Shown: positions 76 to 21,254 of the stretch, piece after piece
Position numbering within the stretch: position 1 is the stretch's first letter
How the letters are laid out: each line of letters starts with the position of its first letter
From: Ignavibacteriales bacterium
Lineage (GTDB): Bacteria > Bacteroidota > Ignavibacteria > UBA10030 > UBA6906
Assembly: GCA_037441705.1 (NCBI GenBank)
Contig: JBBIRR010000052.1
Coordinates: 1-25,074, forward strand
Reading direction: 5' to 3'
Length of the DNA: 25,074 nt
Translations under genes and position numbers: made by a program
Notes under the pieces: model-generated
What the model was told of the DNA's origin: nothing
What the model saw: the letters and a program-made list of their open reading frames with translations, nothing else
Database searches by the model: none

Positions 76-1098
76 TCACGAAACGGTCACCGAACCATCA
101 CGCCGCTCGGCGTGACGCGCCGGCTCCTTCACCATCGCACCCCCGCAACTGCTTCCCGCTCCGGCGGTGCAGCCGTAGCAATGCGACCCGAAGACAATGC
201 TGCGCCGAAGAAGCTTCTCAAAATCAAAATTCCAGATGGTGTCCGGCGCTCCGTGGTTGACACGCCATCGAAGCATCTGATTGAAGTCGCAATCGTACAA
301 CATCCCGTCATATCCCACACTGATCATACTTCGGCACATCACGCCCTCTGCCGCTGTCGGGTTGAAGGCGTTGATCAACTTGCTCATGTACAACTCGTAT
401 AGCTCTGCCCGTTCGAGAAAATGTTTGAAGCGATTGATCGGCATGTTGGTAATGACGTAGAGCCGGTTGAAGACGATGCCGTATCGTTTCCACAGCTCGG
501 CCCTGAATTGTTTCTCCATCGCACTCTGCTCCGGCGGAAGATACGCCCCGACAGGATTGTACACCAAGTCCAACAGCAGCCCACTTCCCTCTTTTCCGTA
601 TCCAAGGGCGTTCAGTCTTCGCAGCGACTCCAAGCTTTTCGCAAACACACCCTGACCACGCTGCGCATCCGTTTCGTGTTCCTGGAAATAGGGCAGCGAG
701 GAGATGACCTCACACTGATGCGCACGAAAGAACTCAGGAAGGTACTCCATGTTCTTCCCGCTGAGGGGATGCGGGTCCAACGTGACGGTGAGGTTATGTC
801 TGACCATCACGTGTGTGTTCAGTGACCTTGCTTGTCTCACGAAGTAATCGAAGTGCTCATTCAACTCAGGTGCGCCGCCCGTGATGTCGAGATTCTTGAT
901 TTGCGGGTGGCGGGCGAGGATTTCCAGACACCGTTCAACGGTATCACGCGTCATCATCTCGGTGCGCTTCGGTCCCGCATCCACATGGCAATGCTTGCAG
1001 GCCTGATTGCACAGCTTGCCAAGATTCACTTGCATCGTCTCGATGCCGACCGGGTTTATCTTGAGATTGTGGTGAGCAAGTGTCGCTTCGAAATCCAT
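76..1098 (-). CDS. arsS: Arsenosugar-biosynthesis radical SAM protein, ArsS family (DUF3641 C-terminus)
   Basis: CxxxCxxC motif (CNQACKHC), DITGGAPE, YDCDFNQML and the C-terminal HCYGCTAGAGSSCGG signature; lies directly downstream of an ArsM-like gene. Confidence 0.9.
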   Translation of the reverse strand: MDFEATLAHHNLKINPVGIETMQVNLGKLCNQACKHCHVDAGPKRTEMMTRDTVERCLEILARHPQIKNLDITGGAPELNEHFDYFVRQARSLNTHVMVRHNLTVTLDPHPLSGKNMEYLPEFFRAHQCEVISSLPYFQEHETDAQRGQGVFAKSLESLRRLNALGYGKEGSGLLLDLVYNPVGAYLPPEQSAMEKQFRAELWKRYGIVFNRLYVITNMPINRFKHFLERAELYELYMSKLINAFNPTAAEGVMCRSMISVGYDGMLYDCDFNQMLRWRVNHGAPDTIWNFDFEKLLRRSIVFGSHCYGCTAGAGSSCGGAMVKEPARHAERRDGSVTVS

Positions 1099-1168: not shown

Positions 1169-2353
1169 TCAGCAACATCCTTCCGGTCCGCAGACGTCAT
1201 GGTCGGCAAATTCCGTCTTGTTGTATTCCAGACCTTTGGTTTCTCGTGCATGGCGGACCGCGCTCTTCCTGCAATCGAACTCCGCAGCAGATTCAAGGGG
1301 TACAGGAATGTATGGTTCGATGCCGATGAGGTCTTGTGCGTAGGGGCCTGCCGGGTTTGTGTAGAGGTTGTAGGTCTTGTCGCACACGGCCATGCGAATG
1401 CCCCGATGCAATGTGTGCCCGTCGTCGTCGGTAACGGTTTTCCACGGACCTTTGTAGATGACCGCTTGCTTCCGCTCGATGCATTTCCCTTGCTTCCCTT
1501 TGTACGCAAGAACGGTCACCGAACGAAATTCTATCCCATTGACGGTCTGCCAGGGTTTGTCATCTCTCTTCACAATCTGCATTCCGTAGAAGCCGGCATC
1601 TTCGAACGCCTCGAGCAAGCCGGTTTCTGTGAATGCACCGGAAATGCAACCGCTCCAAAGTCCCGGGTCGTTCTTCATCTCGTCGGGCACTTCCTCATCG
1701 CTGACGATATCCGCAATGGCGGCGCGCCCACCGCGCTTGAGCACACGAAAGATTTCCTTGAAGAGCTGAGTCCTGTCTTCTTCCTTGACAAGGTTGAGGA
1801 CGCAATTGGAGACGACAACATCAATGGAGTCATCGGCAATCATCGGTTCGGTGCGCCGAAGAACATCAACAAACTCATTCAGCCTCTGAAGGTCGGCAAC
1901 CGTCGCAACAGGATTGCGCGTCAGATATTCTTCTACCCTGTCGAGGTCAACGGCAAGGTTCTGAATTTTTCCTTTGTGAAACTGGATACGGACTCCGCCA
2001 AACTTTTTCTGCATGGCGTCTTTGTACTTTCGGGCAAGAGCAAGCATCTCGTCGTTCATGTCAACACCGATCACAGCACCTCGTGGCCCGACGATCTGCG
2101 CGGCGATATAACAGATCTTGCCCCCTCCGCTCCCGAGATCGAGCACCACGTCTCCTTCCCGAACGAAGCGTGATGGATCGCCGCACCCATAATCCCGTTC
2201 AATAATTTCTTCGGGCAAGGCTTCAAGATACTTCCTATCGTATTCCACCGGACAACAGAGTGCCGGCTCTTTTCGTCGCGCTCCCTGCGAGTAGCGTTCT
2301 CGAACAGACTGCTCGACAGCCAACGGAAGGACGTCCCGGGTTCTTTGACCCAT
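1169..2353 (-). CDS. arsM: Arsenite S-adenosylmethionine methyltransferase-like protein (ArsM/AS3MT family, extended form)
   Basis: SAM motif VLDLGSGGG; ArsM-type cysteines in LCCP, YGCGDP, SNCV and SGCISGA; C-terminal CC; AGGAG RBS upstream of ATG 2353. Confidence 0.8.
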   Translation of the reverse strand: MGQRTRDVLPLAVEQSVRERYSQGARRKEPALCCPVEYDRKYLEALPEEIIERDYGCGDPSRFVREGDVVLDLGSGGGKICYIAAQIVGPRGAVIGVDMNDEMLALARKYKDAMQKKFGGVRIQFHKGKIQNLAVDLDRVEEYLTRNPVATVADLQRLNEFVDVLRRTEPMIADDSIDVVVSNCVLNLVKEEDRTQLFKEIFRVLKRGGRAAIADIVSDEEVPDEMKNDPGLWSGCISGAFTETGLLEAFEDAGFYGMQIVKRDDKPWQTVNGIEFRSVTVLAYKGKQGKCIERKQAVIYKGPWKTVTDDDGHTLHRGIRMAVCDKTYNLYTNPAGPYAQDLIGIEPYIPVPLESAAEFDCRKSAVRHARETKGLEYNKTEFADHDVCGPEGCC

Positions 2354-2421
2354 GCTTTTCTCCTATGAATTGATGCTGTTACACACTGTTCTGTTGTCAC
2401 TCGTGCTATGAGGCCAGGAAT

Positions 2422-2691
2422 TCAATCTTCAACGACCGCCTGATGGCGAAAGAGGTAATACCGGAACTCGGCAGGCGTGAATTCTCCATGGAACGCCGCC
2501 CGTCTGTTCACATAGGTCGCCGGAGTGCGTGTAACGTTCCGCGTCGCAAAGAGAGAGTCGTCTCTACCTTTCTGATAGATCCTCAGAACGATCAGTCCGT
2601 TCTCGGCAAACGGCTTCAGACTCCGTACAACAGCCTCACACGACGAACAATGATCCTCAACGAAGACTTCAATGAACGGTCTCTCCTTCAT
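2422..2691 (-). CDS. Small thioredoxin-fold protein (CxxC)
   Basis: IEVFVEDHCSSC and a cis-Pro-like TPATYVN motif; clear paralog of the N-terminal domain of 11229..12428. Confidence 0.7.
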   Translation of the reverse strand: MKERPFIEVFVEDHCSSCEAVVRSLKPFAENGLIVLRIYQKGRDDSLFATRNVTRTPATYVNRRAAFHGEFTPAEFRYYLFRHQAVVED

Positions 2692-2751
2692 GATACGAAT
2701 ATTCGAGAGATGTTTCGAGAGTCTTCTCTACGAGCTGACTTTCCCGAACCT

Positions 2752-2811
2752 TCCTGTCAATCCTGTTCATCCTGTCAAGAAAATAGACAGGATAAACTGG
2801 ATGAACAGGAT
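2752..2811. repeat. REP-like intergenic inverted repeat built from 9-bp tandem units
   Basis: TCCTGTCAA-TCCTGTTCA-TCCTGTC, a 9-nt spacer, then GACAGGATA-AACTGGATG-AACAGGAT. Confidence 0.75.
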
Positions 2812-2824
2812 GGAGAACTTAACC

Positions 2825-3268
2825 TCAGCGAACGGCAAGAGATTCCACACTACGGCGTCCGTACACTCCTCCGAGCACGGCACCGTACACGAGATGTCCG
2901 ATGAGACTTCCCATCACCATCGCTGCCGGCGCGGGGGTGTTCACAGCAAACACGCCGGCGCCCATCATGGGATTCACAACGACTTGTGCCATGAACCAGG
3001 GGATCAGACCGAAAAGCATACCTTTCATCAGGGCAGAACCCGGAAGCCGCGCCGCAAACACGGCGGCGTAGATGACAGCAAGCACCGTTCCGATCATAAA
3101 GTGCGCTGCCCAACCAATCGGCACCGGGATGCCCATGAATCCTGCCAGCATTCTGCCGATGTTCATCTCCGGCATCCCCATCAGCGGCCCCATCAACATC
3201 ATCACGGTCATGGCGGCCGTGCCTGCAAGTCCGGCGATAATGGCTTTTGTTAGATTGAAGTGTTGCAT
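2825..3268 (-). CDS. Four-helix Met-rich membrane protein (DUF6789/DUF2938-like)
   Basis: Four hydrophobic segments with conserved-looking GWAAHFMIG and GHLVYG histidines; AAGGAGG RBS. Confidence 0.75.
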   Translation of the reverse strand: MQHFNLTKAIIAGLAGTAAMTVMMLMGPLMGMPEMNIGRMLAGFMGIPVPIGWAAHFMIGTVLAVIYAAVFAARLPGSALMKGMLFGLIPWFMAQVVVNPMMGAGVFAVNTPAPAAMVMGSLIGHLVYGAVLGGVYGRRSVESLAVR

Positions 3269-3402
3269 GTGTACCTCCTTGTGAAATTGAAGTTGTGGTG
3301 ATCATTCGCTCGACTCTTCACGAGCGCATGTGCTTGCTCGCGTCTTCATCAAACTTTCCATGAACAGGAAGCGGTATCGAGTGATGTGGTTTCAGTCGGG
3401 AC

Positions 3403-3445
3403 AATCTACACACTGCCTTACTCTTCCGATGTCAGCGAGGTGACA
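3403..3445 (-). promoter_or_regulatory. Crp-family operator TGTCA-GCGAGG-TGACA (3430-3445) with -10 box TAGATT (3408-3403)
   Basis: Perfect TGTCA-N6-TGACA palindrome centred at 3437.5, 29.5 bp from the -12 base (-41.5 position); upstream of the 3268-2691-arsM-arsS gene run. Confidence 0.75.
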
Positions 3446-3452
3446 CCTGAAA

Positions 3453-3575
3453 ATGGACGGGGTGCTGCGACATCGGGTTCCCGTTTTGACTCAGCCTATA
3501 GTTTGCATCGCCGATCATCTCAGCGATGCAAGCATCAAGCGTGAAACGAGCGCAGCACCCCTTGATCAAGGCTCA
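3453..3575 (-). repeat. Structured non-coding element, copy 1 (candidate ncRNA or MITE-like)
   Basis: Differs from 12711-12819 at only 6 of 109 nt over 3453-3561, with looser similarity for about 14 more nt; 11-bp closing stem GGGGTGCTGCG (3459-3469)/CGCAGCACCCC (3551-3561); internal hairpin 3503-3531. Confidence 0.8.
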
Positions 3576-3605
3576 GGCACCCTTCCTATCGAATATGAGA
3601 TACTC

Positions 3606-3872
3606 TTAGTTGTTGTGAAATTTGTCAATCTCATGGATGAGTGCGTGCATAGACGGATTGTGAAGGATTACCCTTGAGCCGGTACTCGGTCTCTCAAGAA
3701 CGATTGTCGGGATAACTCTCCTGCCACCCGACGATTCGATAACCTGCCGGGCGGCTGCCTCGTTTCGATCGATATCAATCTCCTGATACGGAATGTTCCG
3801 TTCGCGCAGAACGCGTTTTGCATTTCTACAGTCGCCGCACCATTGTGTTGAGTAGATTGTAACTGTTTTCAA
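3606..3872 (-). CDS. Glutaredoxin/NrdH/mycoredoxin-like protein
   Basis: TIYSTQWCGDC active site, EIDID and VIPTI cis-Pro motif; TTG start with AAGGGA RBS. Confidence 0.85.
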   Translation of the reverse strand: MKTVTIYSTQWCGDCRNAKRVLRERNIPYQEIDIDRNEAAARQVIESSGGRRVIPTIVLERPSTGSRVILHNPSMHALIHEIDKFHNN

Positions 3873-3926
3873 TGTGTTCCCTTGGCTTTGTTGCCGTTTT
3901 CAAGGCTGTTCCTATGGAACGCAGGT

Positions 3927-3969
3927 AAGGTAATCGCATTGCCGTTGAAACGCTGTCCGCTGGCCGACA
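3927..3969 (-). promoter_or_regulatory. Crp-family operator TGTCC-GCTGGC-CGACA (3954-3969) with -10 box TACCTT (3932-3927)
   Basis: Same motif and same 29.5-bp spacing as the other four sites; upstream of the glutaredoxin gene. Confidence 0.7.
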
Positions 3970-4018
3970 TTTTGCTCATGGGCCGCCTTGACAGCAGAAG
4001 GCAATCAGGTGTGAGATC

Positions 4019-4750
4019 TCATGCGTGATGGAAAAGAGGAACACCGTAACGATTGTCGAACGGCGAGGTGTAGTGCACTCCGATTCTTTGATACACGATT
4101 TGAGGAATGCCGATGTCGGCAAGGAACAACTCGCCCGTCCTTTCCGGAAGCAACCCTGTTTTCGGCAATGCAAGAGTCAGCGTACGTTGCGCTTTCACAA
4201 ACAAACCGGGAGCATCACCGGAGGTGGAATCGATCCCGGAGGGCACATCCAATGCCAACACCGGTACGGCGGTCTCGTTCGTCCACTGAATCAGTTCCAA
4301 AGCATGCCCGCGGGGGGCCGATTGAAGCCTGTATCCGATAATCGCATCAATGATCAAGTCGGCGTGTTCATCGTCGAGGTTTCCCAACGCCACTTCTGAT
4401 CCTGACGTCGAGCGAAATATCTTACGTTGAAACGAAGCGACTTCACCCATACGATCGGGAGTCGCGATACAGAGCCTGACCTTGACGCCAAGATTCGCAA
4501 GATGACGAGCTGCACAAATGCCGCCGCCGCCGTTTCCTCCTGCTCCTGCCAGAACAATTATTTTCGACGTTCTCCATTCTCGCCCGAGCATGTCGATTGC
4601 ACAGAGAGCAAGATTGCGGCCCGCGTTCTCCATCATCTGGAAAAGGTTCGGACCGGTTTCTTCCATCGCAATGCGATCGACTTCACGCATTTGCGCTGCG
4701 GTGATCGCAGGGACTTCGGCCCCGGAGTCACTTGAGAAAACAGTTATCAT
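4019..4750 (-). CDS. nnrE: Stand-alone NAD(P)H-hydrate epimerase-like protein (YjeF N-terminal domain)
   Basis: QMREVDR...MMENAG, Gly-rich loop GAGGNGGGG, IIDAIIG, LDVPSG, TLALPKTGL and ADIGIP. Confidence 0.8.
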   Translation of the reverse strand: MITVFSSDSGAEVPAITAAQMREVDRIAMEETGPNLFQMMENAGRNLALCAIDMLGREWRTSKIIVLAGAGGNGGGGICAARHLANLGVKVRLCIATPDRMGEVASFQRKIFRSTSGSEVALGNLDDEHADLIIDAIIGYRLQSAPRGHALELIQWTNETAVPVLALDVPSGIDSTSGDAPGLFVKAQRTLTLALPKTGLLPERTGELFLADIGIPQIVYQRIGVHYTSPFDNRYGVPLFHHA

Positions 4751-4787
4751 AAGCGGTCACATGAACAAATTTGTCCGGTTGTTCCTC

Positions 4788-5207
4788 TTATTCGATGTTA
4801 GGCGAACCGCGAGACAAGCGCAAGCTTTTCACAAGAAGAAAAGCGACGATCGAAAGTCCGACAACTGTTGCATACTTCTTCCAATTGTGTCTCAACCCGG
4901 ACTGTTCTCTATCGTCCAATTCCGTCTTCCATGGCAGCTGCGTTCCTTTTGCATCCTGCTCACCACTTTCCTGCGGCAAGCAGGAGGGGAGCGTGTCATC
5001 TGTTCCGATGCGACACTCTTGTGCGGGTTCTTCAATCGTGAACCCTTCATGCGGCAAAGGGTTCTTAAAGAATTCGTCAAACTGCCATTCATGCAGCGTC
5101 ATGTCATCCTCCAGAAGCTGATTGATAGTGTCGCCTGTGCTGCAACAAGATATGGTGCGCCCGGGGGAAAACTCTGTCCGCTGAAGGACAAAAGGGAAGT
5201 CAATCAT
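4788..5207 (-). CDS. Hypothetical protein with a C-terminal membrane anchor
   Basis: Fills the gap between crp and nnrE on the same strand; C-terminal hydrophobic helix flanked by basic residues; no family recognised, start uncertain. Confidence 0.45.
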   Translation of the reverse strand: MIDFPFVLQRTEFSPGRTISCCSTGDTINQLLEDDMTLHEWQFDEFFKNPLPHEGFTIEEPAQECRIGTDDTLPSCLPQESGEQDAKGTQLPWKTELDDREQSGLRHNWKKYATVVGLSIVAFLLVKSLRLSRGSPNIE

Positions 5208-5295
5208 TCAAGAAAATTCTTTACGGGGAGACCTGGTGTTGTGAGAAGATGCCTGCCGAATACGAATTACGTGAAGCGGCGAGAAGGAGAGAATA

Positions 5296-5988
5296 CTACT
5301 TTGCGAGGCGCTGAAGCTGGTCAAACTGCTTGATGGTAATTCCCTGCCGCGAGAAATCAATCAGTCCCTGCGATCGGAACTCGTTGAGTGTTGTGGTGAT
5401 GGTTTGGCGGGCGGCACCGGTTAGCAACGCGATCTCTTGATGCGAGAGATGCATCTTGATGCTGACAACGCCCTGTTTCATTTTTCCGAAATCTTCCGCG
5501 TAGCGTACAAGAAAGCTGGCGATGCGTTTCCTCGCATCCTTGAACACCAGGTCTGTGACTCGCTCCTCAAACTTGCGTAAGCGCAGGCCAATGCGCTTCG
5601 TGATCTTCATATTGAGTTCGGGGTTCCCCTTCATGAGGGATTCGAAATCTTCAATCTTCATTGCGCAAATCAGCGCGTCATCAAGCGCTTGAGCCATTTC
5701 ATTGGATTGTTCGCCTTCTTCAATGAGAGCCAACTCGCCAAAGATTTCGCCGGGACCGACAACGTCGAGAATGACTTCTCTCCCGTCGCGATGAATGCGG
5801 GAGATCTTGACGTGCCCACGTTTCAGAAAGAATATCGAGCGCGAGGGTTGATCGGGAAAATAAATGGGATCATGCGGCTTCAAGGTGCTCATCGAGGTCA
5901 TCTTTTCCACGCGCTTCATCATAGCCTCATCCATCCCCTCGAGGATGTTGAAGTGTTTTAGATACCAGAGTTTCGATTGTTCTGCCAT
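5296..5988 (-). CDS. Crp/Fnr family transcriptional regulator (paralog 1)
   Basis: cNMP-binding fold (GHVKISR, GEIFGELAL) and C-terminal HTH LSHQEIALLTGAARQTITTTLNEF. Confidence 0.92.
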   Translation of the reverse strand: MAEQSKLWYLKHFNILEGMDEAMMKRVEKMTSMSTLKPHDPIYFPDQPSRSIFFLKRGHVKISRIHRDGREVILDVVGPGEIFGELALIEEGEQSNEMAQALDDALICAMKIEDFESLMKGNPELNMKITKRIGLRLRKFEERVTDLVFKDARKRIASFLVRYAEDFGKMKQGVVSIKMHLSHQEIALLTGAARQTITTTLNEFRSQGLIDFSRQGITIKQFDQLQRLAK

Positions 5989-5999
5989 AGGTCAGCATG

Positions 6000-6069
6000 A
6001 AGTTACTGAGATGGAACAACGAAAAATGTCTGCAGGACGACAGTTTTCTATTAAGAGTCTCCATAGCAT
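6000..6069. promoter_or_regulatory. Bidirectional promoter: operator TGTCT-GCAGGA-CGACA (6027-6042) flanked symmetrically by -10 boxes TAACTT (minus, 6005-6000) and TAGCAT (plus, 6064-6069)
   Basis: Site centre is 6034.5 and both -12 bases lie exactly 29.5 bp away; sits between the divergent crp1 and barrel genes. Confidence 0.7.
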
Positions 6070-6083
6070 TCTACCGAATAAAC

Positions 6084-7058
6084 ATGAAAAAAGGCAGAGC
6101 GGTTGTTCTGATTCTCCTCATGCAGATAGGAACACCTTACATAGGGTGGTCGCAGGCATGCTGCTCGGCGGGAACGCCGCTCCTCAGCTCATTGGAGCTT
6201 CCATCCACCTCGGCGGGTACGCTCCAATTGGCACTCACGTATGAATACAACACGCTGCACGATGTTCTCGCGGGATCGTCCACATTGAATGATGATTCGC
6301 GAAGGCGCACCACACACTCGTTGTTGCTTGAAACAAGCTACGGCTTCACTGCATCCTTCTCAGCAAGCATCTTGCTTGCAATGGTCCAGCAAGAACGAAG
6401 TATTCGCCCCTCCTTAGAGGGGACCGAGTCGTTCTTGAAAACTCGCGGCCTCGGTGATGCAATTGTTCTGCTGAAGTACAATCTCATTCAGGCAAACATT
6501 ATCAATCAGATTGACCTTTCCGTGGGGGCTGGCGTCAAGATTCCTCTCGGAAGATCCAATCTTACGGCCGACGGTATTCTGCTACCAGCAGATATGCAGC
6601 CCGGCACAGGAGCGTGGGATGGAATTCTCTGGGGATATGTCTCTCAGGGCTTCGTGCCCGCGCCTCCCCTCAATGTCTTTGCATCGGTATCGTATCGCTA
6701 TACCGGCAGCAATGCGCGCTTTGGAAACAATCAGGAAGGCTATACATTCGGTAACGAGCTCGTCGCTAATGTGGGCGCAGGTTTTCGAACGGATGCGAGC
6801 CTGGATTTTTCACTTGTCCTTCGGTTTCGACAAACGACCAGTGACCGATTCGCAGGTTCCGACATCCCGAACACGGGGGGACTGTGGCTCTCAGCAGTTC
6901 CCGGCGTGAATGTAAAGGTGTTGGACAATCTTGCCGTGCGCGTATCGGGACAGATTCCTTTGTATCGAAACTTGGACGGTACGCAGCTCACAACAAGCTA
7001 TACGGCGTCGGCCACGGTGTTCTACACCATGAACCTGTTCGAAGAGAAGATGCAATGA
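6084..7058 (+). CDS. Putative outer-membrane beta-barrel/transporter (phenol MetA-pathway-like) with N-terminal CC motif
   Basis: Signal peptide MKKGRAVVLILL followed by QACCSAG; amphipathic beta strands; GLGD, GVKIPLG and QPGTGAWD motifs; start moved to ATG 6084 because the longer ORF overlaps the promoter. Confidence 0.7.
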   Translation: MKKGRAVVLILLMQIGTPYIGWSQACCSAGTPLLSSLELPSTSAGTLQLALTYEYNTLHDVLAGSSTLNDDSRRRTTHSLLLETSYGFTASFSASILLAMVQQERSIRPSLEGTESFLKTRGLGDAIVLLKYNLIQANIINQIDLSVGAGVKIPLGRSNLTADGILLPADMQPGTGAWDGILWGYVSQGFVPAPPLNVFASVSYRYTGSNARFGNNQEGYTFGNELVANVGAGFRTDASLDFSLVLRFRQTTSDRFAGSDIPNTGGLWLSAVPGVNVKVLDNLAVRVSGQIPLYRNLDGTQLTTSYTASATVFYTMNLFEEKMQ

Positions 7059-7096
7059 ACTTCACCTTTATCCAACAACCAAAAGGAGGGCGAGCT

Positions 7097-8155
7097 ATGC
7101 AACGCGAACGGAGACTGTGGAAGGCGGTGTTCTTACTTCTACTCTTCTTCACCGCATGCGACAAGCCATCAAGCTCTGAGGCACTTGAAGGCGACTGGCT
7201 GATTCCCAAGGATCAGATCCTTGACGGCGGGCCCGGCAAAGACGGCATTCCTGCACTGAGCAATCCTGCATTCGTGAGCAGTTCTGACGCCACATATCTT
7301 CGCGATGAGGATCTCATCATCGGTGTACAATTTGGCGATGTAGTGCGCGCATACCCTCACCCGATTCTTGACTGGCATGAGATCATTAATGATGAGATTG
7401 GTTCTGCGCGATTTGCCATCACATACTGTCCCCTGACAGGTTCTGGCGTCTCATGGAACAGGGTGCTCAACGGCAATGCAACGACATTTGGTGTCTCGGG
7501 CTTGTTGTACAATACGAATCTTATTCCCTATGACCGCGCGACAAACAGCAACTGGTCACAAATGAAACTTCAGTGCGTGAACGGCCCGCTGATGGGAGCA
7601 GCCATTGCCATATACCCCATCGTCGAAACAACCTGGCGAACGTGGAAGCAGATGTATCCACAGACAGTAGTTGTCTCGCGCAACACAGGTTACTCGCGTT
7701 CGTACGGAACGTATCCGTACGGCGACTACCGGACCAGCAACACGACAATATTCCCGATCAGCAATCGCGACGACAGGTTGCCGATGAAAGAGCGCGTTCA
7801 CGGTGTGATCGTTGGAGACAAAGCGCGCGTGTACCGCATTGCGACGCTCACCGATAGTGTTCGAATCATCAATGACGTCTTGAACGGCACTTCGATTGTC
7901 GTGGCGGGAAGCCGCTCACAAAATTATGCTGTGGCATTTGAACGGCGGCTTACGGATGGAACCGAGCTATCGTTCTCTCCCGTTGCTGGTGCGCTGCCTG
8001 TTGTCATGCAGGATAACGAAGGAACGAAATGGGATATCTTTGGCAACGCTGTTCAAGGCCCACGCGCAGGAACAACCTTGAAGCAGGCACGCTCATATAC
8101 CGCGTACTGGTTTGCGTGGGGAACGTTTTTCCCGGGCGTGGAGATTTATCAGTAG
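7097..8155 (+). CDS. DUF3179 domain lipoprotein
   Basis: AGGAGG RBS before ATG 7097; lipobox-like LLFFTAC; GGPGKDGIPAL, WHEIIND, TYCPLTGS, FGVSGLLY and YWFAW motifs. Confidence 0.85.
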   Translation: MQRERRLWKAVFLLLLFFTACDKPSSSEALEGDWLIPKDQILDGGPGKDGIPALSNPAFVSSSDATYLRDEDLIIGVQFGDVVRAYPHPILDWHEIINDEIGSARFAITYCPLTGSGVSWNRVLNGNATTFGVSGLLYNTNLIPYDRATNSNWSQMKLQCVNGPLMGAAIAIYPIVETTWRTWKQMYPQTVVVSRNTGYSRSYGTYPYGDYRTSNTTIFPISNRDDRLPMKERVHGVIVGDKARVYRIATLTDSVRIINDVLNGTSIVVAGSRSQNYAVAFERRLTDGTELSFSPVAGALPVVMQDNEGTKWDIFGNAVQGPRAGTTLKQARSYTAYWFAWGTFFPGVEIYQ

Positions 8156-8198
8156 GCCAGTCGCTCCGAGCGCCAGATTTCGTCAACGGTGGTTCCGT

Positions 8199-8843
8199 TC
8201 ACTTGAGAGCAGCTCTGGCTGCCTCCAGCATGACATGAGGGTCAAGACGGACTTTATAGTTCGGATTCACGTACGAGAACTTGATGATGCCATCGGTTCC
8301 GACTATAAACACGGAAGGGACAGGCAGGAGATGATGTTTCTCGCCGGAGGCATCCTCCAAATCAATGTTGTAGTCCTTGTACTTGTGAACGAGTTGCTCT
8401 TCCACTTTGAATGCAATACCGAACGCAGAGCACCCGACCATTTTGCTGTCCGACAGAAGCGTGTAGTTGAGATTATCCTTCGTGAGGGTTTCCTGAAGTT
8501 TTTCAGGCTTGTCTGTACATATCGCAAGGAGTTGATAGCCGAGAGCGAGCAATTGTGGCTCAACCTCCACCAACTGCTTCAGTTGTGCGTTGCAATACGG
8601 ACACCATCCGCCGCGGTAGAAAACGAGTACCGTCGGCTTCTGTCGAATTGCTTCGCCGACATCAAACGGCCGTCCTTCCGACGTTGTGAGTATCAACGGC
8701 GGCACACGCATGCCCACTTTGATTGGACACACAGCTTCTGCCGAGGGTGCTGCATTGTCAACCAAACGTTGACTGAGAATCTTCTCAGGCATAAGAAGTC
8801 CGATCATGGCAAAAAGGGAAAGAACACGAGAGTGCATCGGCAT
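8199..8843 (-). CDS. Exported AhpC/TSA (peroxiredoxin-like/redoxin) family protein
   Basis: VLVFYRGGWCPYC, LLSD and LPVPSVFIV motifs; N-terminal signal-like helix. Confidence 0.85.
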   Translation of the reverse strand: MPMHSRVLSLFAMIGLLMPEKILSQRLVDNAAPSAEAVCPIKVGMRVPPLILTTSEGRPFDVGEAIRQKPTVLVFYRGGWCPYCNAQLKQLVEVEPQLLALGYQLLAICTDKPEKLQETLTKDNLNYTLLSDSKMVGCSAFGIAFKVEEQLVHKYKDYNIDLEDASGEKHHLLPVPSVFIVGTDGIIKFSYVNPNYKVRLDPHVMLEAARAALK

Positions 8844-8865
8844 GCAGTTGTACCTTTCGTTGAAT

Positions 8866-9396
8866 TCAATACCGATAATAACTCTCCGCGGAGTTCATAT
8901 GCTCAACCATTTCTTTCAGCGTCAGTGGATTCACGTATGATGGCAGCTTTGTCTTGCCCTTGAGTTCTTTCTCAACGCTGGTGAGCACATTCCATGTACC
9001 GTTGACGGTGATGTCCGCCCCTTTCTTCGAGAGGAGTTCCAAGAATCCCCCAAAGTCTTTTACAGCCTGCAGGTCTTTTTCCTTGAGCTGAGCAATGACC
9101 AGCTGTTTCAAGTCGGCGGGTACTTCATAGCGGTCGAAATCGTTCTTTCCATCCGCGTCAGTTCTTTTCAGGTTCCATGCTGCCTCAGAATCGAAGAGGA
9201 GCTCCACCCGATTTCCTGCTACGAGGTTCGCGTAAGCGATATCAAAGGCAACGCATGGCGGCCCGTCGTCTTTCTTGATGTTGCTGACCACATGGATGAG
9301 AACCTTGTGTCCTTTCGGATGTGACCGGGTGAGCTCGGCATGCCACACGATCCCGGTCAAGAGGAGAGCTACGATTGCGAGATACTGCTTTTTCAT
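8866..9396 (-). CDS. Exported DsrE/DsrF-like protein
   Basis: Signal peptide; KVLIHV, PCVAFDIA, VELLFDSEA and LTLKEMVEHM follow the DsrE-like pattern; AAAGGA RBS. Confidence 0.6.
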   Translation of the reverse strand: MKKQYLAIVALLLTGIVWHAELTRSHPKGHKVLIHVVSNIKKDDGPPCVAFDIAYANLVAGNRVELLFDSEAAWNLKRTDADGKNDFDRYEVPADLKQLVIAQLKEKDLQAVKDFGGFLELLSKKGADITVNGTWNVLTSVEKELKGKTKLPSYVNPLTLKEMVEHMNSAESYYRY

Positions 9397-9559
9397 TGTG
9401 ATTCCTTTGAGTGGTCATTGATGGGGTCGGTCAAGCACTTCCGGGAGTGCCTTCCCGTGTAATTATGAATATCTCACGTAATGATAATGATGAAGAGTCT
9501 CTTAGGCAACAGTAAGCCTACGCGAGTTTGTGATGTGTCACGGGTACAATCGTATAGAC

Positions 9560-10324
9560 TCATGCTTTCACACCATCACGTGCCCTTGCTCGCATTTCAA
9601 GTCCGAACCGATCAAGCACGGTGTGGTAGCGTAAGAGTATCTGCCAAACGAACTTATCAAGAGAGTGCGAAATAGATACGCGTCGGGCGTGCGTACCGTC
9701 CTCGCTTCTCTCAAGAGGAAGTTGATCCGGATAAAAGACAACAGTCTCAATTGTGCCAACACCTTCGAATGTTTCCTGTCGGTGTTCGGGCTGCAATCCA
9801 AAAAAATCCTTTATCGCATTCAACATCGGCTTCGTCATCAAGACATACTCTTTAGTCGGAATGGAGTTCTTCAGCAAACGATGAATAATGATAACATCAA
9901 GTCCAAAGAGTTGTTGGAACCGGCCAACCTGTTCGATGTCGGCCCGGCCAAGATGGATGACCTCCTTCAACTGAAGGTCGTGGATATGGTCGCAGGCATC
10001 ACATCCGCACGTCGTCAGCGCGTCGATTGCTTGAAGTTCCGCCTTGAACGCGGAAAACAGATCTACTAGTTGTTCCTTCACGCGGTCTGCAACCTCGGTG
10101 ATACTGTTATTTGAGGCACGGGCATAGAAGAACACAGCATCTCCTTCGAGTTCAGCCACCCTCAAAGGTGGTTTCGCACTCTTCATTAGCGCCTTCAGCA
10201 ATCGGACGATGATTTGCTTTCCATGACTGCCGGCAACCGTGTGTGCATGCTCTTTCGTGAAGCGCGTGTAGCCGCTGATATCGGCAATCAGGAGAATAGT
10301 GTTGCTGTCCTCTTGTTCTTCCAC
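9560..10324 (-). CDS. DUF2652 family protein with class III nucleotide-cyclase-like fold
   Basis: IADISGYT, ELEGDAVFF, CGCDAC, LKEVIHLG and LFGLDVIIIHRLLKN; GTG start. Confidence 0.8.
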   Translation of the reverse strand: MEEQEDSNTILLIADISGYTRFTKEHAHTVAGSHGKQIIVRLLKALMKSAKPPLRVAELEGDAVFFYARASNNSITEVADRVKEQLVDLFSAFKAELQAIDALTTCGCDACDHIHDLQLKEVIHLGRADIEQVGRFQQLFGLDVIIIHRLLKNSIPTKEYVLMTKPMLNAIKDFFGLQPEHRQETFEGVGTIETVVFYPDQLPLERSEDGTHARRVSISHSLDKFVWQILLRYHTVLDRFGLEMRARARDGVKA

Positions 10325-10389
10325 TTGCGCTAACCAAGAATGTCGAGAGATGCCGGAGATAACCCAGCGAGGAACGAAATCAAACCGGA

Positions 10390-10463
10390 GAGACCGCAGA
10401 GAAAGCCTGTGTTTCTTCCAAAGGGATTCTTGCTCATTACGCCGCCAGACCCTCGGCGGTCTC
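10390..10463. repeat. REP-like inverted repeat
   Basis: GAGACCGCAGAG (10390-10401) pairs with CTCGGCGGTCTC (10452-10463) with one mismatch; intergenic. Confidence 0.5.
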
Positions 10464-10489
10464 CGCGATGGAACATGTGCACTACGCTC

Positions 10490-11197
10490 TTAGCTTGTTT
10501 TATTCAATTCAAGATTGAGAACAATGTTCACAGTCTCGCCGGCAATCAACCCGCCCGACTCGATTGCCATATTCCACTTCAAACCGAAGTCGAACCGGTT
10601 AATGGCAGTGGTTGCTTTCCAGGCGTACAGCGTGCCCATCGGCGTTTTCATCGAGCCGTTCAATGTAGCATCGAATACCACCTTCCTGGTTATGCCACGA
10701 ATCGTGAGGTCGCCGATGATCTTGTATTGGTCCTTGCCAACCCTTTCAAATTTTGTGCTCTTGAAGGTAATTTCGGGATACTTCTCGGCATTGAAGAAGT
10801 CATCTGATTTCAGGTGCGTGTCGCGTTTCTCATTGTCGGTGCTGATACTCGACACCATGATCTTTGCCGAGACCATTGCATCGGAGAAATCGTCCTTCGT
10901 TGCTGAGAAGTCTATCGCGAAGTCCTTGAACTTCCCGGTCACGTCGGAGATGACAAGGTGTTTGACCGAAAACATTACTGCCGAATGCGCAGGGTCAATG
11001 CTCCATCCCTTCGACATCTTGCCGCAGGGATTGCAGGGGTTCTCGGCTTTCTTCCCGCAGGGATTGCAGGGGTTTTCTTTCGTCATCTCCTTTTTCTTCC
11101 CGCAGGGGTTGCACGGATTCTCCTTGTTCTGCGAGTACCCGGCTGCCGTAGTCAGCACTAACGCTGCGACGACGAACAACTTCTGGAACGTGTACAT
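10490..11197 (-). CDS. YceI family periplasmic protein with N-terminal (ENPCNPCGK)x3 repeats
   Basis: AAAGGAG RBS before ATG 11197; signal peptide; YceI motifs WSIDPAHS, VKHLVISDVTGKF, RDTHLKSDDFF, GDLTIRG and INRFDFGL. Confidence 0.88.
   Translation of the reverse strand: MYTFQKLFVVAALVLTTAAGYSQNKENPCNPCGKKKEMTKENPCNPCGKKAENPCNPCGKMSKGWSIDPAHSAVMFSVKHLVISDVTGKFKDFAIDFSATKDDFSDAMVSAKIMVSSISTDNEKRDTHLKSDDFFNAEKYPEITFKSTKFERVGKDQYKIIGDLTIRGITRKVVFDATLNGSMKTPMGTLYAWKATTAINRFDFGLKWNMAIESGGLIAGETVNIVLNLELNKTS
11018..11122 (-). repeat. Coding tandem repeat encoding ENPCNPCGK x3
   Basis: Three near-identical units (CCGCAGGG(A/G)TTGCA(G/C)GG) on the plus strand. Confidence 0.85.
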
Positions 11198-11228
11198 TGG
11201 TGTTGCTCCTTTTGTACTGTGATGAATA

Positions 11229-12428
11229 TTATGGATTGGTTGATGAAATGGACTTCGCGCATCGGAAGCCGACATTGTTGAAGCTGGACGCCTTCGGACT
11301 TCGTCCACGAAACGCATTGCGATAACCGCCGCAGTATGCCTCACTGCAAAACCATGAGCCGCCGCGGGCGACTTTGTATTTGCCGCTCGCTGCACCGACA
11401 GGATTCGCAATCGGTGAGACCTTGTAGTAGTTCTCGTCGTACCAGTCGGCACACCACTCCCACACGTTGCCGACTATATCGTACAGGCCGAAATCATTCG
11501 GCGGAAAACTTCCGACGGGCGACGTGTAGTAGTAGCCGTCATAGAGACGATTGGTGTCCGGCCAGGTGCCTTGCCAGAAATTGGCGTGTGGCTTACCATC
11601 GGGCATCAACTCGTTTCCCCAGGGGAAGGTTTGCTGTTTCCTCCCGCCGCGTGCCGCGTATTCCCATTCGGCTTCTGTCGGCAAACGTTTGCCTGCCCAC
11701 GAGGCAAACGCCCGTGCATCGTTCCAGGAGACCTGCACAACAGGATGATTCATTCTGTCTTTGATATCGGAATCCGGTCCTTCCGGATGCCGCCAATCTG
11801 CTCCCGCAATCCTTTCCCAATCGGTAGCGCCTTTTCGAAATACCCAGCCCCACCCCTTTCGCTCGGCATCGGTGACATAGTTAGTTGCACGAACAAAGTC
11901 GTCGAACTGCTCGTTTGTTACCAGGTACCGATCAATCTGAAAGGGGCGAAGCGATACATCATGTGTTGGTGTTTCATCAGTGTAGCGGGAGCCTGTTCCT
12001 CCCATCGTAAACATCCCTCCGGAGAGAGTGACCATGTCGCCGGATGGCGAGTGTGAACACTGAACGCCGGCAATCATCAACGATACGATTGCAACAAATC
12101 CAGAGAGAAGATTTCGAATGAATTGCAACCATGAAGCCTTGCGTGGCGATTTCGCTTTCAACACTGGAACGGCGCCCGCTACGGTCTCCTTTTTGGAGAC
12201 GTACTCTTGAAGTTCGTTCATCGAAAACTCTCCATAGAATGCCAGCGTGCCGTTGACGACCGTTGCCGGGCAGATAACCACGCTTCGTTCATAGAACATT
12301 TCAATATCGTTCGTTCTCTCATAGACGCGCACCATCGTCTCTCCATCGCTCGCAAAGCGCGTGACCAGAGCGACGACGCGTTCGCAGGACTCGCAGCCAT
12401 TTTCTACGAAAACCTCGATAAGGTGCAT
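11229..12428 (-). CDS. Formylglycine-generating enzyme (SUMF1/FGE-sulfatase) family protein fused to an N-terminal thioredoxin-like domain
   Basis: HPVVQVSWNDA, RLPTEAEWEYAARGG, GNVWEW, RGGSWFCSEAYC and GFRC; N-terminal IEVFVENGCESC domain then a hydrophobic helix; start set at ATG 12428 (AAGGA RBS, promoter upstream). Confidence 0.85.
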   Translation of the reverse strand: MHLIEVFVENGCESCERVVALVTRFASDGETMVRVYERTNDIEMFYERSVVICPATVVNGTLAFYGEFSMNELQEYVSKKETVAGAVPVLKAKSPRKASWLQFIRNLLSGFVAIVSLMIAGVQCSHSPSGDMVTLSGGMFTMGGTGSRYTDETPTHDVSLRPFQIDRYLVTNEQFDDFVRATNYVTDAERKGWGWVFRKGATDWERIAGADWRHPEGPDSDIKDRMNHPVVQVSWNDARAFASWAGKRLPTEAEWEYAARGGRKQQTFPWGNELMPDGKPHANFWQGTWPDTNRLYDGYYYTSPVGSFPPNDFGLYDIVGNVWEWCADWYDENYYKVSPIANPVGAASGKYKVARGGSWFCSEAYCGGYRNAFRGRSPKASSFNNVGFRCAKSISSTNP

Positions 12429-12456
12429 GATCCATCCTTGTGGCTTAACGGTAATG

Positions 12457-12499
12457 AAGATAGCTTGACGATCAGGAAATTGTTGTCCGCTGGCGGACA
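12457..12499 (-). promoter_or_regulatory. Crp-family operator TGTCC-GCTGGC-GGACA (12484-12499) with -10 box TATCTT (12462-12457)
   Basis: Perfect 5-bp arms, 29.5-bp spacing, 15/16 identical to the 3954 site. Confidence 0.75.
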
Positions 12500-12710
12500 A
12501 AGCCACGACTCTCGCGACCCATGTCGGGCAACGGAGCGCCGGTCATCGAGGAAGCGTTCTGTTCTCTCTTCACGCCGACACGCCGCCTCCATCGAATGTG
12601 TTTGAATTGCTAGAACCGTGTTTCCGTGATGGGCAACTCTGGGACGGCACATTCCTGTTGGCTTCGGTGAACGCCGATTCCTCCTGCGCTTTCATGCGTT
12701 CTTCACGCAC

Positions 12711-12833
12711 ATGGACGGGGTGCTGCGACATCGGGTTCCCGTATTGACTCAGCCTATAGTTCTCTTCGCCGATCATCTCAGCGATGCGAGCATCAAGCGT
12801 GAAGCGAGCGCAGCACCCCATGATCGAGGCCCA
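12711..12833 (-). repeat. Structured non-coding element, copy 2
   Basis: Copy of 3453-3575; closing stem 12717-12727/12809-12819; one compensatory T-A to C-G change in the inner hairpin. Confidence 0.8.
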
Positions 12834-12846
12834 ATCCGAGACGGAC

Positions 12847-13296
12847 TTAGTGCGTCTTGCCGAGCGCAGCAAACTGTTTGTCGGCCATTGCAATGGTCGC
12901 TTCGGGATTCTTGTCGAACTCCGCCTTCGCTTCCTTGCTTGAGAACAGATAGGTCGCACCCTCATGGATCGTGAAGATCGCCGGATCAGACTCGAGTTTC
13001 TGTCCCATTGCCACCCCCGTGGCACAATAGCCGTCATACTTGGGCAGATACTTTTCCGGGTCCGCGTCGAACATTTTCTTCGCGTCGGCATTGAGCAAGT
13101 AGTATTTCTTTCCCTTGAAGGTTGACACAAACTTTGCATTACCCTTCAGTGCCTTCCCCATCGCAATGTACGCAACGGGGCAATACTGCTTGAGCGCCAC
13201 GTTCTTCGCCGCTTTCGAAGTCTGGGCGTGCCCGAAGATGCTGAAGCTTACCATCAGGGCAAGCGCAAACGCAATGGGACGGATACGGTATCGCAT
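12847..13296 (-). CDS. Exported YHS domain-containing protein
   Basis: Signal peptide; YCPVAY, FDADPEKYLPKYDGYCA and DPAIFTIHEGATYLF; AAAGGAG RBS. Confidence 0.85.
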   Translation of the reverse strand: MRYRIRPIAFALALMVSFSIFGHAQTSKAAKNVALKQYCPVAYIAMGKALKGNAKFVSTFKGKKYYLLNADAKKMFDADPEKYLPKYDGYCATGVAMGQKLESDPAIFTIHEGATYLFSSKEAKAEFDKNPEATIAMADKQFAALGKTH

Positions 13297-13371
13297 AGGT
13301 GACTCCTTTGATTATTGTGCATGTGAGTAACGGTCCCGAGATCGAGAGTCTTCGGGACGTGAAGCTGATGT

Positions 13372-13414
13372 ATGATACGTCAGGCTGGGAAGGAATGATG
13401 TCAGGAAGGTGACA
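13372..13414 (-). promoter_or_regulatory. Crp-family operator TGTCA-GGAAGG-TGACA (13399-13414) with -10 box TATCAT (13377-13372)
   Basis: Perfect TGTCA-N6-TGACA with 29.5-bp spacing; between crp2 and the YHS gene. Confidence 0.75.
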
Positions 13415-13507: not shown

Positions 13508-14200
13508 TTACTGCGAGATTTCTTTCAGCTTGTGGAACTGCTTGATGGTGATCCCTTCGCGAGAGAAGTCGATGAGTCCGGCACTACGGAATTCATTCAG
13601 TGTCGTCGTAACCGTTTGTCGTGACGAACCAGTGAGGAACGCAATCTCCTGATGGGACAGATGCATCTTGATGCTCACAACGCCATGTTTCATCTTTCCG
13701 AATTCTTCGGCATAGCCGACCAGAAAACTCGCAACGCGCTTCCGCACATCCTTGAAGACAAGGTCCGTCACCCGTTCTTCAAACTTTCGCATCCTCAGTC
13801 CGATGCGCTTCATCACCCTGAGGTTCAGCTCCGGGTTCATGGTGATCATCCGCTCGAAGTCCTGCTTCTTGACGGCACAGATGAGAACATCATCCAGCGC
13901 CTGCGCAATCTCGTTCCTTTGCGCGTCTTCGTCGAGCAGCGACAGCTCACCAAAAATTTCGCCCGGACCAATGATCTCGAGAATCACTTCTTTCCCGTCG
14001 GGATTGAGACGGGAGATTTTTACATGACCTTTCTTGAGCAGGAAAACCGATTGCGACGGTTCGTCCGGGAAATAGATGGGCTGGTGAGGCTTTACATGAC
14101 TCATGGAGGCAATGCGGTCAATTTCCGCCATGGACTTCTCATCCATCCCCTCAAACAAGTTGAAGTGGTTCAGATACCAGAATTTTGTTTGCTCAGCCAT
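13508..14200 (-). CDS. Crp/Fnr family transcriptional regulator (paralog 2)
   Basis: Same length (230 aa) as 5296..5988 with long identical stretches (KFEERVTDLVFKD, GVVSIKMHLSHQEIA); HTH GSSRQTVTTTLNEF. Confidence 0.92.
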   Translation of the reverse strand: MAEQTKFWYLNHFNLFEGMDEKSMAEIDRIASMSHVKPHQPIYFPDEPSQSVFLLKKGHVKISRLNPDGKEVILEIIGPGEIFGELSLLDEDAQRNEIAQALDDVLICAVKKQDFERMITMNPELNLRVMKRIGLRMRKFEERVTDLVFKDVRKRVASFLVGYAEEFGKMKHGVVSIKMHLSHQEIAFLTGSSRQTVTTTLNEFRSAGLIDFSREGITIKQFHKLKEISQ

Positions 14201-14272: not shown

Positions 14273-14569
14273 TTATCCTCCTGCGATCGCTCCCAGGATG
14301 ATGAACGGTTCGGCACCTGAAACAACGGCGCTCGGAAGCGGAGTATCTCCCGGCTCAAGCGAGAGGTCTTGCTCGCACGCAAAGTAACGCAGAAACGGTC
14401 GGCGCTGCTTCGTGATGTGGTCGCGAATCGTTCCGCGCAGCACCGGATAGCGCGCTTCGAGCGCGTCGAGAATGGATGCAAGTGTTACGGGACCCTCCAC
14501 CTCAAGCTCCACCTCCGCACCGACACGCGCGAGATTCCGCAGATGATATGGCAGGACGACGCGAATCAT
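14273..14569 (-). CDS. MoaD/ThiS family ubiquitin-like protein
   Basis: Beta-grasp pattern IRVVLP..L, LEARYP and RRPFLRYF; C-terminal AIAGG. Confidence 0.85.

Positions 14570-20111: not shown

Positions 20112-21254
<1,143 letters not shown>

Follow-up and report, generated by a model that had tools for sequence, protein, structure and literature searches.

The window analysed here is a whole contig of 25,074 nucleotides (C52; GenBank JBBIRR010000052.1) from the genome of an Ignavibacteriales bacterium, and it carries six perfect copies of the palindrome TGTC-N8-GACA together with two genes for Crp/Fnr-type regulators, crp1 and crp2. These boxes exist, cluster, hold a fixed spacing to a hexamer of the form TAnnnT, recur in other genomes and covary with an Arg-Gln-Thr (RQT) recognition helix in the regulator. 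Most likely, the six boxes are binding sites of Crp1 and Crp2 and mediate class II-type activation of seven promoters, a reading to which we assign a probability of about 0.7. The literature searches made returned no paper on a regulon of this kind, and none that joined arsS, arsM or arsenosugar with Crp or cyclic nucleotides; an earlier sequence-only reading of this DNA had likewise not recognised the regulon as described.

Operator boxes

The new analysis places the six boxes (Table 1) far above expectation for the window: 100 dinucleotide-preserving shuffles gave a mean of 0.49 matches and at most two, and none of the 100 reached six. The sequence-only reading had reported five palindromes, all of which lie where it put them, and had expected fewer than one chance match per 25 kb, a figure with which the shuffles agree; it had overlooked the sixth perfect match, box 6, which occupies the most conserved position in the regulator family, just downstream of crp. 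Across the assembly (3,834,317 bp, or 3.83 Mb, in 92 contigs; metagenome-assembled and rated 100% complete) the pattern occurs 34 times, and the 28 matches outside the window correspond to chance level. Other spacer lengths from N4 to N12 give 26-59 genome matches, so that N8 is no commoner than they are; six of the 34 matches, however, sit within 10 kb on C52. One-mismatch variants are at chance (12 found, 11.75 expected), and weak extra sites were dropped as candidate operators for that reason.

A position weight matrix built from 22 boxes returned 23 genome matches of at least 12 bits, among which the window's boxes rank 1-5 and 7, a ranking that is partly circular because 6 of the 22 training sites are the window's own. 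Beyond the window the spacing is found at only one such match, an intergenic site of 12.9 bits on contig C26 (TAGCGT at 29.5 bp), which is probably a chance occurrence; a match on contig C15, inside a coding region and without the spacing, was rejected. A tblastn search of the genome found three Crp-family genes only, namely the two RQT genes on C52 and one with an RET helix on C5. With no other RQT regulator and no other convincing site in the genome, the earlier proposal of a regulon confined to this island is supported.

All six boxes are intergenic, as proposed, once three start codons are corrected. Specifically, the starts at 5102 and 12428 were chosen for their ribosome-binding sites (GGAGGA and AAGGATGG, respectively), the latter start also coinciding with the start of a Trx_3 domain, and the start at 6084 yields 324 amino acids (aa), the same length as the orthologue at locus L014. 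A nuance concerns box 1 (3430-3445), which shares bases with the stop codon of a possible open reading frame (ORF) of 45 codons at 3432-3569. A box stands at the head of each transcription unit from 76 to 13414. No Rfam family matched anywhere in the window. An assignment of different box types to the two paralogues (TGTCAG..GGTGACA against TGTCCGCTG..GACA) was considered and dropped because the orthologous loci gave no consistent pattern.

Promoter geometry

The boxes stand at a nearly invariant distance from a -10-like hexamer. Of the seven directions that face a gene, six have a TAnnnT hexamer whose first base lies 29.5 bp from the box centre, or 21 nt after the box; for the minus-strand direction from box 6 it lies 22 nt after the box, at 30.5 bp. 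This confirms the hexamers named earlier for all five boxes then known, including both strands of box 3. Counted over all twelve directions in the window, TAnnnT occurs at 29.5 in six and at 30.5 in one; at the 28 matches outside the window (56 directions, offsets 27.5-32.5) it occurs in two, once at each of these offsets. The histogram of offsets peaks at 29.5, with a shoulder at 30.5, in the window, in the genomes of relatives (10 of 32 directions) and in metagenome loci with an RQT regulator (16, plus 7 at 30.5, of 62). Other offsets mostly hold 0-2 counts and a few hold 3-4; the one outlier is a count of 9 at 14.5 in the metagenome set.

Over 40 promoters the hexamer consensus is TA-[T/C]-[C/T]-T-T, with T at position 5 in 32, a TAnnTT-like element closer to the Bacteroidota -7 box TAnnTTTG than to TATAAT. 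Several AT-rich loci have an ATG 7-9 nt past the hexamer, which suggests leaderless mRNAs with the hexamer as their -10 element; the identification thereby gains independent support. Leaders in the window are also very short at box 3, where the ATGs at 5988 and 6084 follow 11 and 14 nt past their hexamers. A promoter and terminator scan found no sigma-70-type -35/-10 pair in any of the seven promoter regions, which fits activator dependence. The predicted transcription starts are 3396, 3920, 5140, 5993, 6076, 12450 and 13365.

Recurrence and covariation in other genomes

The element recurs beside orthologous regulators in other genera, and its presence follows the residues of the recognition helix. 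A metagenome search returned 80 loci, each of which was classed by the residues aligned to R194-Q195-T196 of Crp1; seven loci (RQM, RQK, RQS or truncated) were set aside from the comparison. The 19 RQT loci (230 kb) hold 30 boxes, 22 of them correctly spaced (29.5/30.5), and in 16 of these loci a box lies no more than 150 bp from crp. In contrast, the 54 loci with RET, RES, REA or REN helices (584 kb) hold four boxes, none correctly spaced, and crp has a box close by in just one of these loci. The usual layout in the family is crp, then a box 10-54 bp past its stop codon, then the next gene; its equivalents in the window are crp2/box 5/YHS and crp1/box 6/104-aa ORF.

Among 41 genomes of relatives, including the window's own, Crp1 homologues (E<=1e-30) were found in nine, and in 4 of the 11 other genomes of the genus, a patchy distribution. 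The box recurs around these homologues, with the hexamer at 29.5 beside 10 of the 16 copies. The modules, each consisting of a box, its promoter and its genes, are reordered in close relatives, with four boxes in 6.5 kb in genome G002 and three in 3.1 kb in G011. Across the phylum, the regulator family (profile A1, E<=1e-45) is present in 24 of 301 genomes and 21 of 143 genera. The 21 usable loci of this set, each covering only +-1.5 kb around crp, served as a replicate: 20 are RQT and one RPT, Cys108 is kept in 20, and a box stands just downstream of crp in nine, seven of which have the spacing. In the comparison with orthologous loci that the sequence-only reading had called for, box and spacing recur in other genera.

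The two regulators

Crp1 and Crp2 are 70% identical. Their recognition helices, GAARQTITTTLNEF (GAARQT) in Crp1 and GSSRQTVTTTLNEF (GSSRQT) in Crp2, are confirmed from the translations as the RQT type noted earlier. Both proteins combine an N-terminal beta-roll of the cyclic nucleotide monophosphate (cNMP)-binding type with a C-terminal Crp-type helix-turn-helix (HTH; Table 1), PF00325 matching the latter as well, and no NCBIfam model exceeded its cut-off for either. Against the PDB, the best full-length matches are Mycobacterium tuberculosis Crp (4.4e-29) and NtcA (2.8e-24), with CooA lower at 2.4e-20. For the DNA-binding domain of Crp2 alone, the best PDB match is CooA (2fmy 8.5e-10, 1ft9 5.2e-08) with RQT aligned, and the CooA segments facing the query helix are GTTRQTVSVLLNDF and GSSRQTTSTALNSL.

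The effector pocket is less uniform. In an alignment of 25 RQT proteins the invariant features include an N-terminal K-x-W-Y, GPGE-[IL]-FGE, one cysteine (Cys108 of Crp1) and the R-Q of the helix. At the Arg-Ser/Thr of the phosphate-binding cassette of cyclic AMP (cAMP)-CRP, Crp1 has S-N (..GEQSNEMAQA) and Crp2 R-N (..AQRNEIAQA), opposite R-T in M. tuberculosis Crp; the position that would contact the cyclic phosphate holds R, H, S, A, T, G, Q or Y across the family, and several members of the same class have a canonical R-T cassette. The earlier attribution of a GEL-type cNMP pocket to both regulators is therefore correct only in part: Crp2 keeps the arginine and Crp1 lacks it, and the cNMP idea is weak for Crp1 on the same ground.

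Proposed mechanism and alternatives

In the activation model, dimers of Crp1 or Crp2 (dimer binding to a palindromic box being what the covariation of helix and box suggests) would read TGTC through a CooA-type R-Q-T helix. The box centre would lie at about -41.5 from the transcription start, in place of the usual -35/-33 element, and because of this position the bound dimer is proposed to recruit RNA polymerase directly, in class II fashion. Six boxes would serve seven promoters, since box 3 would fire both ways, and the seven resulting units would fill 76-13414: DUF6789/Trx_3/ArsM-like/ArsS; Grx/small ORF; 104-aa ORF/YjeF_N; crp1; exported protein/DUF3179/283-aa ORF; Trx_3::FGE/YceI/DUF2652/176-aa ORF; and YHS/small ORF. 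Under this scheme crp1 would be positively autoregulated from box 3, and crp2, which has no box, would presumably be the basal source of regulator. That the paralogues act through the boxes on these operons, as the sequence-only reading proposed, is supported by recurrence in other genera, covariation with RQT and the CooA-like DNA-binding domain, with activation, as opposed to repression, as the probable mode.

Several points weigh against this reading. No box lies upstream of crp2, and a perfect box is absent from 12 of the 21 family loci in the phylum-wide replicate, within the +-1.5 kb covered there. Crp1 lacks the cassette arginine, which is not constant in the family as a whole. The hexamers, such as TACCTT and TAGATT, are weak, their position being what identifies them as -10 elements, and a box over the -35 region could also repress. 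Whether the regulon is self-contained hinges on binning and on what was assembled, the genome being metagenome-derived, and the GC content of the contig is 51-52% against 56% for the genome. For the arsenic genes specifically, 38 of 40 sampled ArsS loci (+-9.5 kb each, 751 kb in total) have no correctly spaced box, only L143 and L145 having them, and the second ArsS of the window's own genome (C58:7217-8128, locus L139, 428.6 bits) has no box in the 17.7 kb examined.

The Crp paralogues might instead act as repressors that, bound over -35/-33, keep the seven promoters shut until a signal arrives. The box does cover the place where polymerase contacts upstream promoter DNA, and Crp/Fnr proteins can repress, as PMC545781 predicts for some HcpR sites. 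Those predicted repressor sites, however, overlap the -10 box and are more loosely positioned, whereas the distance here is fixed within 1 bp across distant lineages. There is also no -35-like element that would allow transcription without an activator, and a single box facing two divergent promoters at equal distance fits polymerase contact, so that repression appears unlikely. A still less probable explanation, to which we give very little weight, is that another factor binds the boxes, or that they are structural or hairpin repeats with coincidental Crp neighbours. Three boxes (TGTCCGCTGGCGGACA and relatives) could indeed fold into 6-7-bp hairpins, but the interiors of boxes 1 and 5 are non-palindromic, the rest of the genome does not repeat the element, the boxes track the RQT helix across 80 loci, and CooA, with the same helix, is known to use a TGTC half-site.

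The RQT helix and the TGTC-N8-GACA target also raise the question whether the regulators are genuine orthologues of CooA and sense carbon monoxide (CO) via haem. CooA membership was rejected because no CO dehydrogenase was found: PF03063 (CO dehydrogenase/Hcp) gave no match in the genome, which is rated 100% complete, and control genomes gave matches. In addition, the full-length proteins are nearer to the cAMP-binding Crp of Mycobacterium and to NtcA than to CooA, the FGE motif of cNMP-type domains is retained, and the regulon contains no coo genes. Orthology to CooA is thus highly improbable; the likeness in DNA reading is kept, and it is gene content, the FGE motif and the full-length match that set the regulators apart. 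An identity as HcpR was rejected too, as the motifs differ and the genome has no hcp (PF03063, 0 matches); PMC1274295 gives HcpR motifs of GTAAC-N4-GTTAC or TTGTGA type. The RQT helix and boxes of TGTC-N8-GACA, not TGTGA-N6-TCACA, led to the rejection of cAMP-CRP of the Escherichia coli type. Finally, an 8-base pattern has low information content and could cluster by chance, a notion that is effectively refuted by the shuffles and the spacing, together with conservation across genomes and the covariation with the helix.

Target genes and the arsenic link

The genes that accompany the boxes elsewhere define a conserved regulon core of Grx/Trx-like proteins, DUF6789, FGE-like proteins, YjeF_N, DUF3179 and YHS. 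Specifically, box-headed genes for Grx and/or a small Trx_3 protein directly follow crp at nine loci (L013, L020-L022, L024, L028, L031, L033, L038), and at two of them (L013, L022) Grx follows a box downstream of crp. DUF6789 follows boxes at L015, L029 and L145, and an unfused FGE-like gene follows DUF6789 at L012 and L020. YjeF_N has its own box at L024 and L145; DUF3179 follows boxes at L014, L033 and L143, at L014 together with an orthologue (59% identical) of the 324-aa exported protein; YHS follows boxes at L002 and L145, DoxX at L024, L027 and L028, and a MerT-HMA gene a correctly spaced box at L020. MerT-HMA fusions, zf_CopZ and ArsR-family genes also lie beside RQT crp genes (L012 5240-6775; L020 4731-6714; L029 10902-11498), which points to soft-metal handling as part of the regulon theme.

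The arsenic genes are an occasional recruit, not part of the core. A box lies upstream of them at four sites: the window; L025, in the order crp, box, Trx-like, VTT-fused flavoprotein disulfide reductase, ArsS (441 bits), ArsM-like, glycosyltransferase (GT); G061, in the order box (TAAATC at 29.5), small ORF, ArsM, GT, further genes, ArsS; and G094, in the order box, YjeF_N, ArsM-like, with ArsS nearby. In G061 and G094 an RQT crp with its own box lies 22-24 kb away on the same contig. ArsS is found in 110 of the 301 phylum genomes; we place arsM and arsS outside the core because most ArsS loci in the phylum are without boxes and same-genus genomes that lack the regulator still carry ArsS. The earlier suggestion that a Crp activator, not ArsR, would control arsM and arsS is supported for this contig, on which no ArsR-type gene was found (all six HTH_5 matches lie on C9, C2 (two), C27, C64 and C32), but does not generalise, the genes having joined only in some lineages. 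Acr3 was not found in the search made.

Two observations from other loci touch this theme. At L052 (crp 9980-10732, ArsS 11168-12103) and L058 (crp 9980-10690, ArsS from 10855), distant REA/RET-type Crp genes of other lineages stand directly upstream of arsS without TGTC boxes, which suggests a wider tie of this Crp branch to arsS via other DNA motifs. Fusions of 709 aa that join VTT/DedA to a MerA-like flavoprotein disulfide reductase occur at L025 (11137-13266), L027 (12245-14374) and L028 (16622-18751); they score 375-393 bits with the MerA model, below its cut-off of 454, and recur in box-headed operons of AT-rich loci with DUF3047, DoxX and thiamine pyrophosphate enzymes.

A candidate signal

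Our leading idea about the signal, which is a guess, is a cyclic nucleotide from the DUF2652 cyclase-like protein, the third gene of the box-4 operon. DUF2652 also lies directly upstream of crp at L021 and near crp at L022 and L019. Four aligned members (window 9560-10324; L021:3465-4100; L022:8676-9344; L019:5-556), all beside RQT crp genes, keep two aspartate motifs, IADIS.YT and EGDA, and CGCDAC, an insertion in the cyclase-like fold. An hhalign comparison with the genome's three class III cyclase domains aligned the aspartate motifs weakly (probability 2.4%, E 0.019). In a Foldseek search with an AlphaFold model from four sequences, itself of low confidence (pLDDT 57.8), class III adenylyl and guanylyl cyclases made up nearly all of the top ~48 matches, 12 of them at E<=1e-3 and with TM 0.3-0.45. 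DUF2652 had been predicted to be cyclase-like, its Bacteroidetes members guanylate-cyclase-like (Ramakrishnan et al. 2016, PMC4886424), in a text that contains the word Crp 0 times. A cyclic nucleotide from DUF2652 is therefore a reasonable candidate for the effector, at least in the case of Crp2; a candidate alternative is modification of Cys108 by a thiol-reactive metalloid or oxidant.

A bolder and rather doubtful extension would make the island a self-contained circuit with its own second messenger. DUF2652, with its invariant CxCxxC insert, would respond to a thiol-reactive metalloid such as arsenite, or to a redox change, and make a cNMP that activates the RQT Crps. The cNMP-bound regulators would then induce the cyclase's own operon, a positive feedback, and would co-induce genes for thiol redox, metal handling and organo-arsenic biosynthesis. 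If true, this would be a cNMP-based, ArsR-independent form of metalloid-responsive control in Bacteroidota.

Gene map of the window

The boxes, hexamers and annotated genes of the island are collected in Table 1.

Table 1 Boxes, -10-like hexamers and genes between positions 76 and 14200 of the window
Feature	Position	Strand	Sequence or match	Remarks
Box 1	3430..3445		TGTCAGCGAGGTGACA	heads minus-strand operon DUF6789 / Trx_3 / ArsM-like / ArsS
Box 2	3954..3969		TGTCCGCTGGCCGACA	heads Grx + small ORF, minus strand
Box 3	6027..6042		TGTCTGCAGGACGACA	both directions: crp1 (minus); 324-aa exported protein / DUF3179 / 283-aa ORF (plus)
Box 4	12484..12499		TGTCCGCTGGCGGACA	heads Trx_3::FGE-like, YceI, DUF2652, 176-aa ORF, minus strand
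Box 5	13399..13414		TGTCAGGAAGGTGACA	93 bp downstream of crp2 stop; heads YHS + small ORF, minus strand
Box 6	5175..5190		TGTCCGCTGAAGGACA	105 bp downstream of crp1 stop; heads 104-aa ORF + YjeF_N, minus strand
Hexamer, box 1	3403-3408	minus	TAGATT	29.5 bp
Hexamer, box 2	3927-3932	minus	TACCTT	29.5 bp
Hexamer, box 3 toward crp1	6000-6005	minus	TAACTT	29.5 bp
Hexamer, box 3 toward 324-aa gene	6064-6069	plus	TAGCAT	29.5 bp
Hexamer, box 4	12457-12462	minus	TATCTT	29.5 bp
Hexamer, box 5	13372-13377	minus	TATCAT	29.5 bp
Hexamer, box 6	5147-5152	minus	TATCTT	30.5 bp
ArsS, radical SAM arsenosugar enzyme family	76..1098	minus	TIGR04167 429.9 bits (cut-off 300)	Radical_SAM + DUF3641
ArsM-like SAM methyltransferase	1169..2353	minus	best NCBIfam matches are ArsM models, below cut-offs (369.9 of 500; 189.7 of 263)	394 aa
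Small Trx_3-type thioredoxin-like protein	2422..2691	minus	PF13192, 8.7e-06
DUF6789 membrane protein	2825..3268	minus	Pfam 3.9e-18	first gene after box 1
Small ORF	3432..3569	minus		45 codons, possible
Glutaredoxin (Grx)	3606..3872	minus	Pfam 4.1e-16
YjeF_N, NAD(P)HX epimerase-like	4019..4750	minus	Pfam 1.8e-39; TIGR00197 126.6 bits (cut-off 88.6)
104-aa ORF	4788..5102	minus	no family match	first gene after box 6; no homologue in any locus compared
crp1	5296..5988	minus	cNMP_binding (PF00027) 4.5e-20; HTH_Crp_2 (PF13545) 2.2e-17	230 aa
Exported protein	6084..7058	plus	no Pfam or NCBIfam match	324 aa; the 'barrel' of the sequence-only reading
DUF3179 protein	6884..8155	plus	Pfam 1.6e-95	domain from residue 119; true start probably near 7090
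283-aa ORF	ends 8963	plus
176-aa ORF	8866..9396	minus
DUF2652, class III nucleotide-cyclase-like	9560..10324	minus	Pfam 3.9e-31
YceI-like protein	10490..11197	minus	Pfam 7.7e-47	with signal peptide
Trx_3 fused to FGE-sulfatase-like domain	11229..12428	minus	Pfam 6.8e-85 and 1.3e-08
Small ORF	12570..12821	minus
YHS-domain protein	12847..13296	minus	NF041384 101.9 bits (cut-off 70)
crp2	13508..14200	minus	PF00027 3.5e-22; PF13545 1.3e-16	230 aa

Further features of the window stand beside this map. Within the YceI gene, at 11008-11125 (minus strand), three tandem units of 33-45 nt follow the signal peptide and precede the YceI domain; they encode NPCNPCGK repeats, which may form a cysteine-rich metal-binding stretch. 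A direct repeat of 123 nt (3453-3575 and 12711-12833) is 93% identical, against 76% DNA identity of the crp genes, and its minus strand codes for the beginning of two small ORFs (..GCCARFTLDA.IAEMIG..NYRLSQ.GNPMSQHPVH), which close the Grx and YHS units at their 3' ends; one of them ends inside box 1. This small ORF has just two copies in the genome and none in the loci compared, with no Pfam or Rfam match. Just upstream of crp2, a 98-aa ORF (14273-14569, minus strand) with a Gly-Gly end and weak ThiS/PqqD matches (E 0.02, 0.012) looks like a ThiS/MoaD-type sulfur carrier; it is preceded by a DUF1801 gene, and DUF1801 is also found near crp at L012. A type I CRISPR-Cas operon at 17754-24867 encodes Cas6, a CXXC-type large subunit candidate, Cas7/DevR, Cas5 and Cas3 with an HD domain; a search of the window with Tandem Repeats Finder gave no repeat array.

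Significance

The proposed regulon links a regulator subfamily, a DNA motif, a promoter geometry and recurring targets in Bacteroidota, a phylum with little-charted transcriptional control, and we place the regulators among the Crp/Fnr class II activators, as a subfamily whose set of targets is new. It would provide a first functional handle on the co-travelling families DUF6789, DUF3179, FGE-like, YHS and the DUF2652 cyclase-like proteins. Arsenic-methylation and arsenosugar genes, furthermore, can apparently come under a Crp-type activator in place of ArsR, in at least four lineages. The predictions are cheap to test, since start sites are precisely predicted for all seven promoters and the two regulators are small and soluble. 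Should the DUF2652 link prove true, the system would represent a rare cyclic-nucleotide circuit for metalloid or thiol stress.

Comparison with known systems

CooA of Rhodospirillum rubrum, Desulfovibrio and Carboxydothermus (PDB 1ft9, 2fmy, 2hkx) shares the R-Q-T helix with Crp1 and Crp2, and its target is the same 16-bp palindrome as the island boxes, with a consensus given as TGTCGGCnnGCCGACA in PMC545781; according to PMC6557876, CooA activates by polymerase contact. In contrast to CooA, the island belongs to a genome without CO dehydrogenase, its regulators have a sensor domain nearer to cNMP-binding Crp and NtcA, its boxes prefer C/A-G-C at the inner positions where CooA prefers G-G-C, and its regulon consists of thiol-redox, metal-handling and arsenic genes.

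At class II promoters of E. coli CRP the site is centred at -41.5. The 29.5-bp distance in the island corresponds to this position if the hexamer spans -12 to -7, and the island box would likewise take the place of the -35 element; the helix, however, is RQT and not RET, the half-site TGTC and not TGTGA, and Crp1 is without the cAMP-contacting arginine. M. tuberculosis Crp (Rv3676; PDB 3h3u, 3d0s, 3i54) and cyanobacterial NtcA, the best full-length matches in the structural database, have the FGEL motif in common with the island Crps, and the cassette arginine is aligned in Crp2. They differ in their helices (RET and R-V-T) and DNA motifs, and in being global regulators, not island-bound ones.

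The DUF2652 family, as described in PMC4886424, has in the window a member that keeps the aspartate motifs and that here lies inside a Crp-type regulon. Elsewhere, arsM is usually controlled by ArsR. Like the ArsR-run ars operons, the island controls an ArsM-like methyltransferase together with ArsS, but its control element is a Crp-type box.

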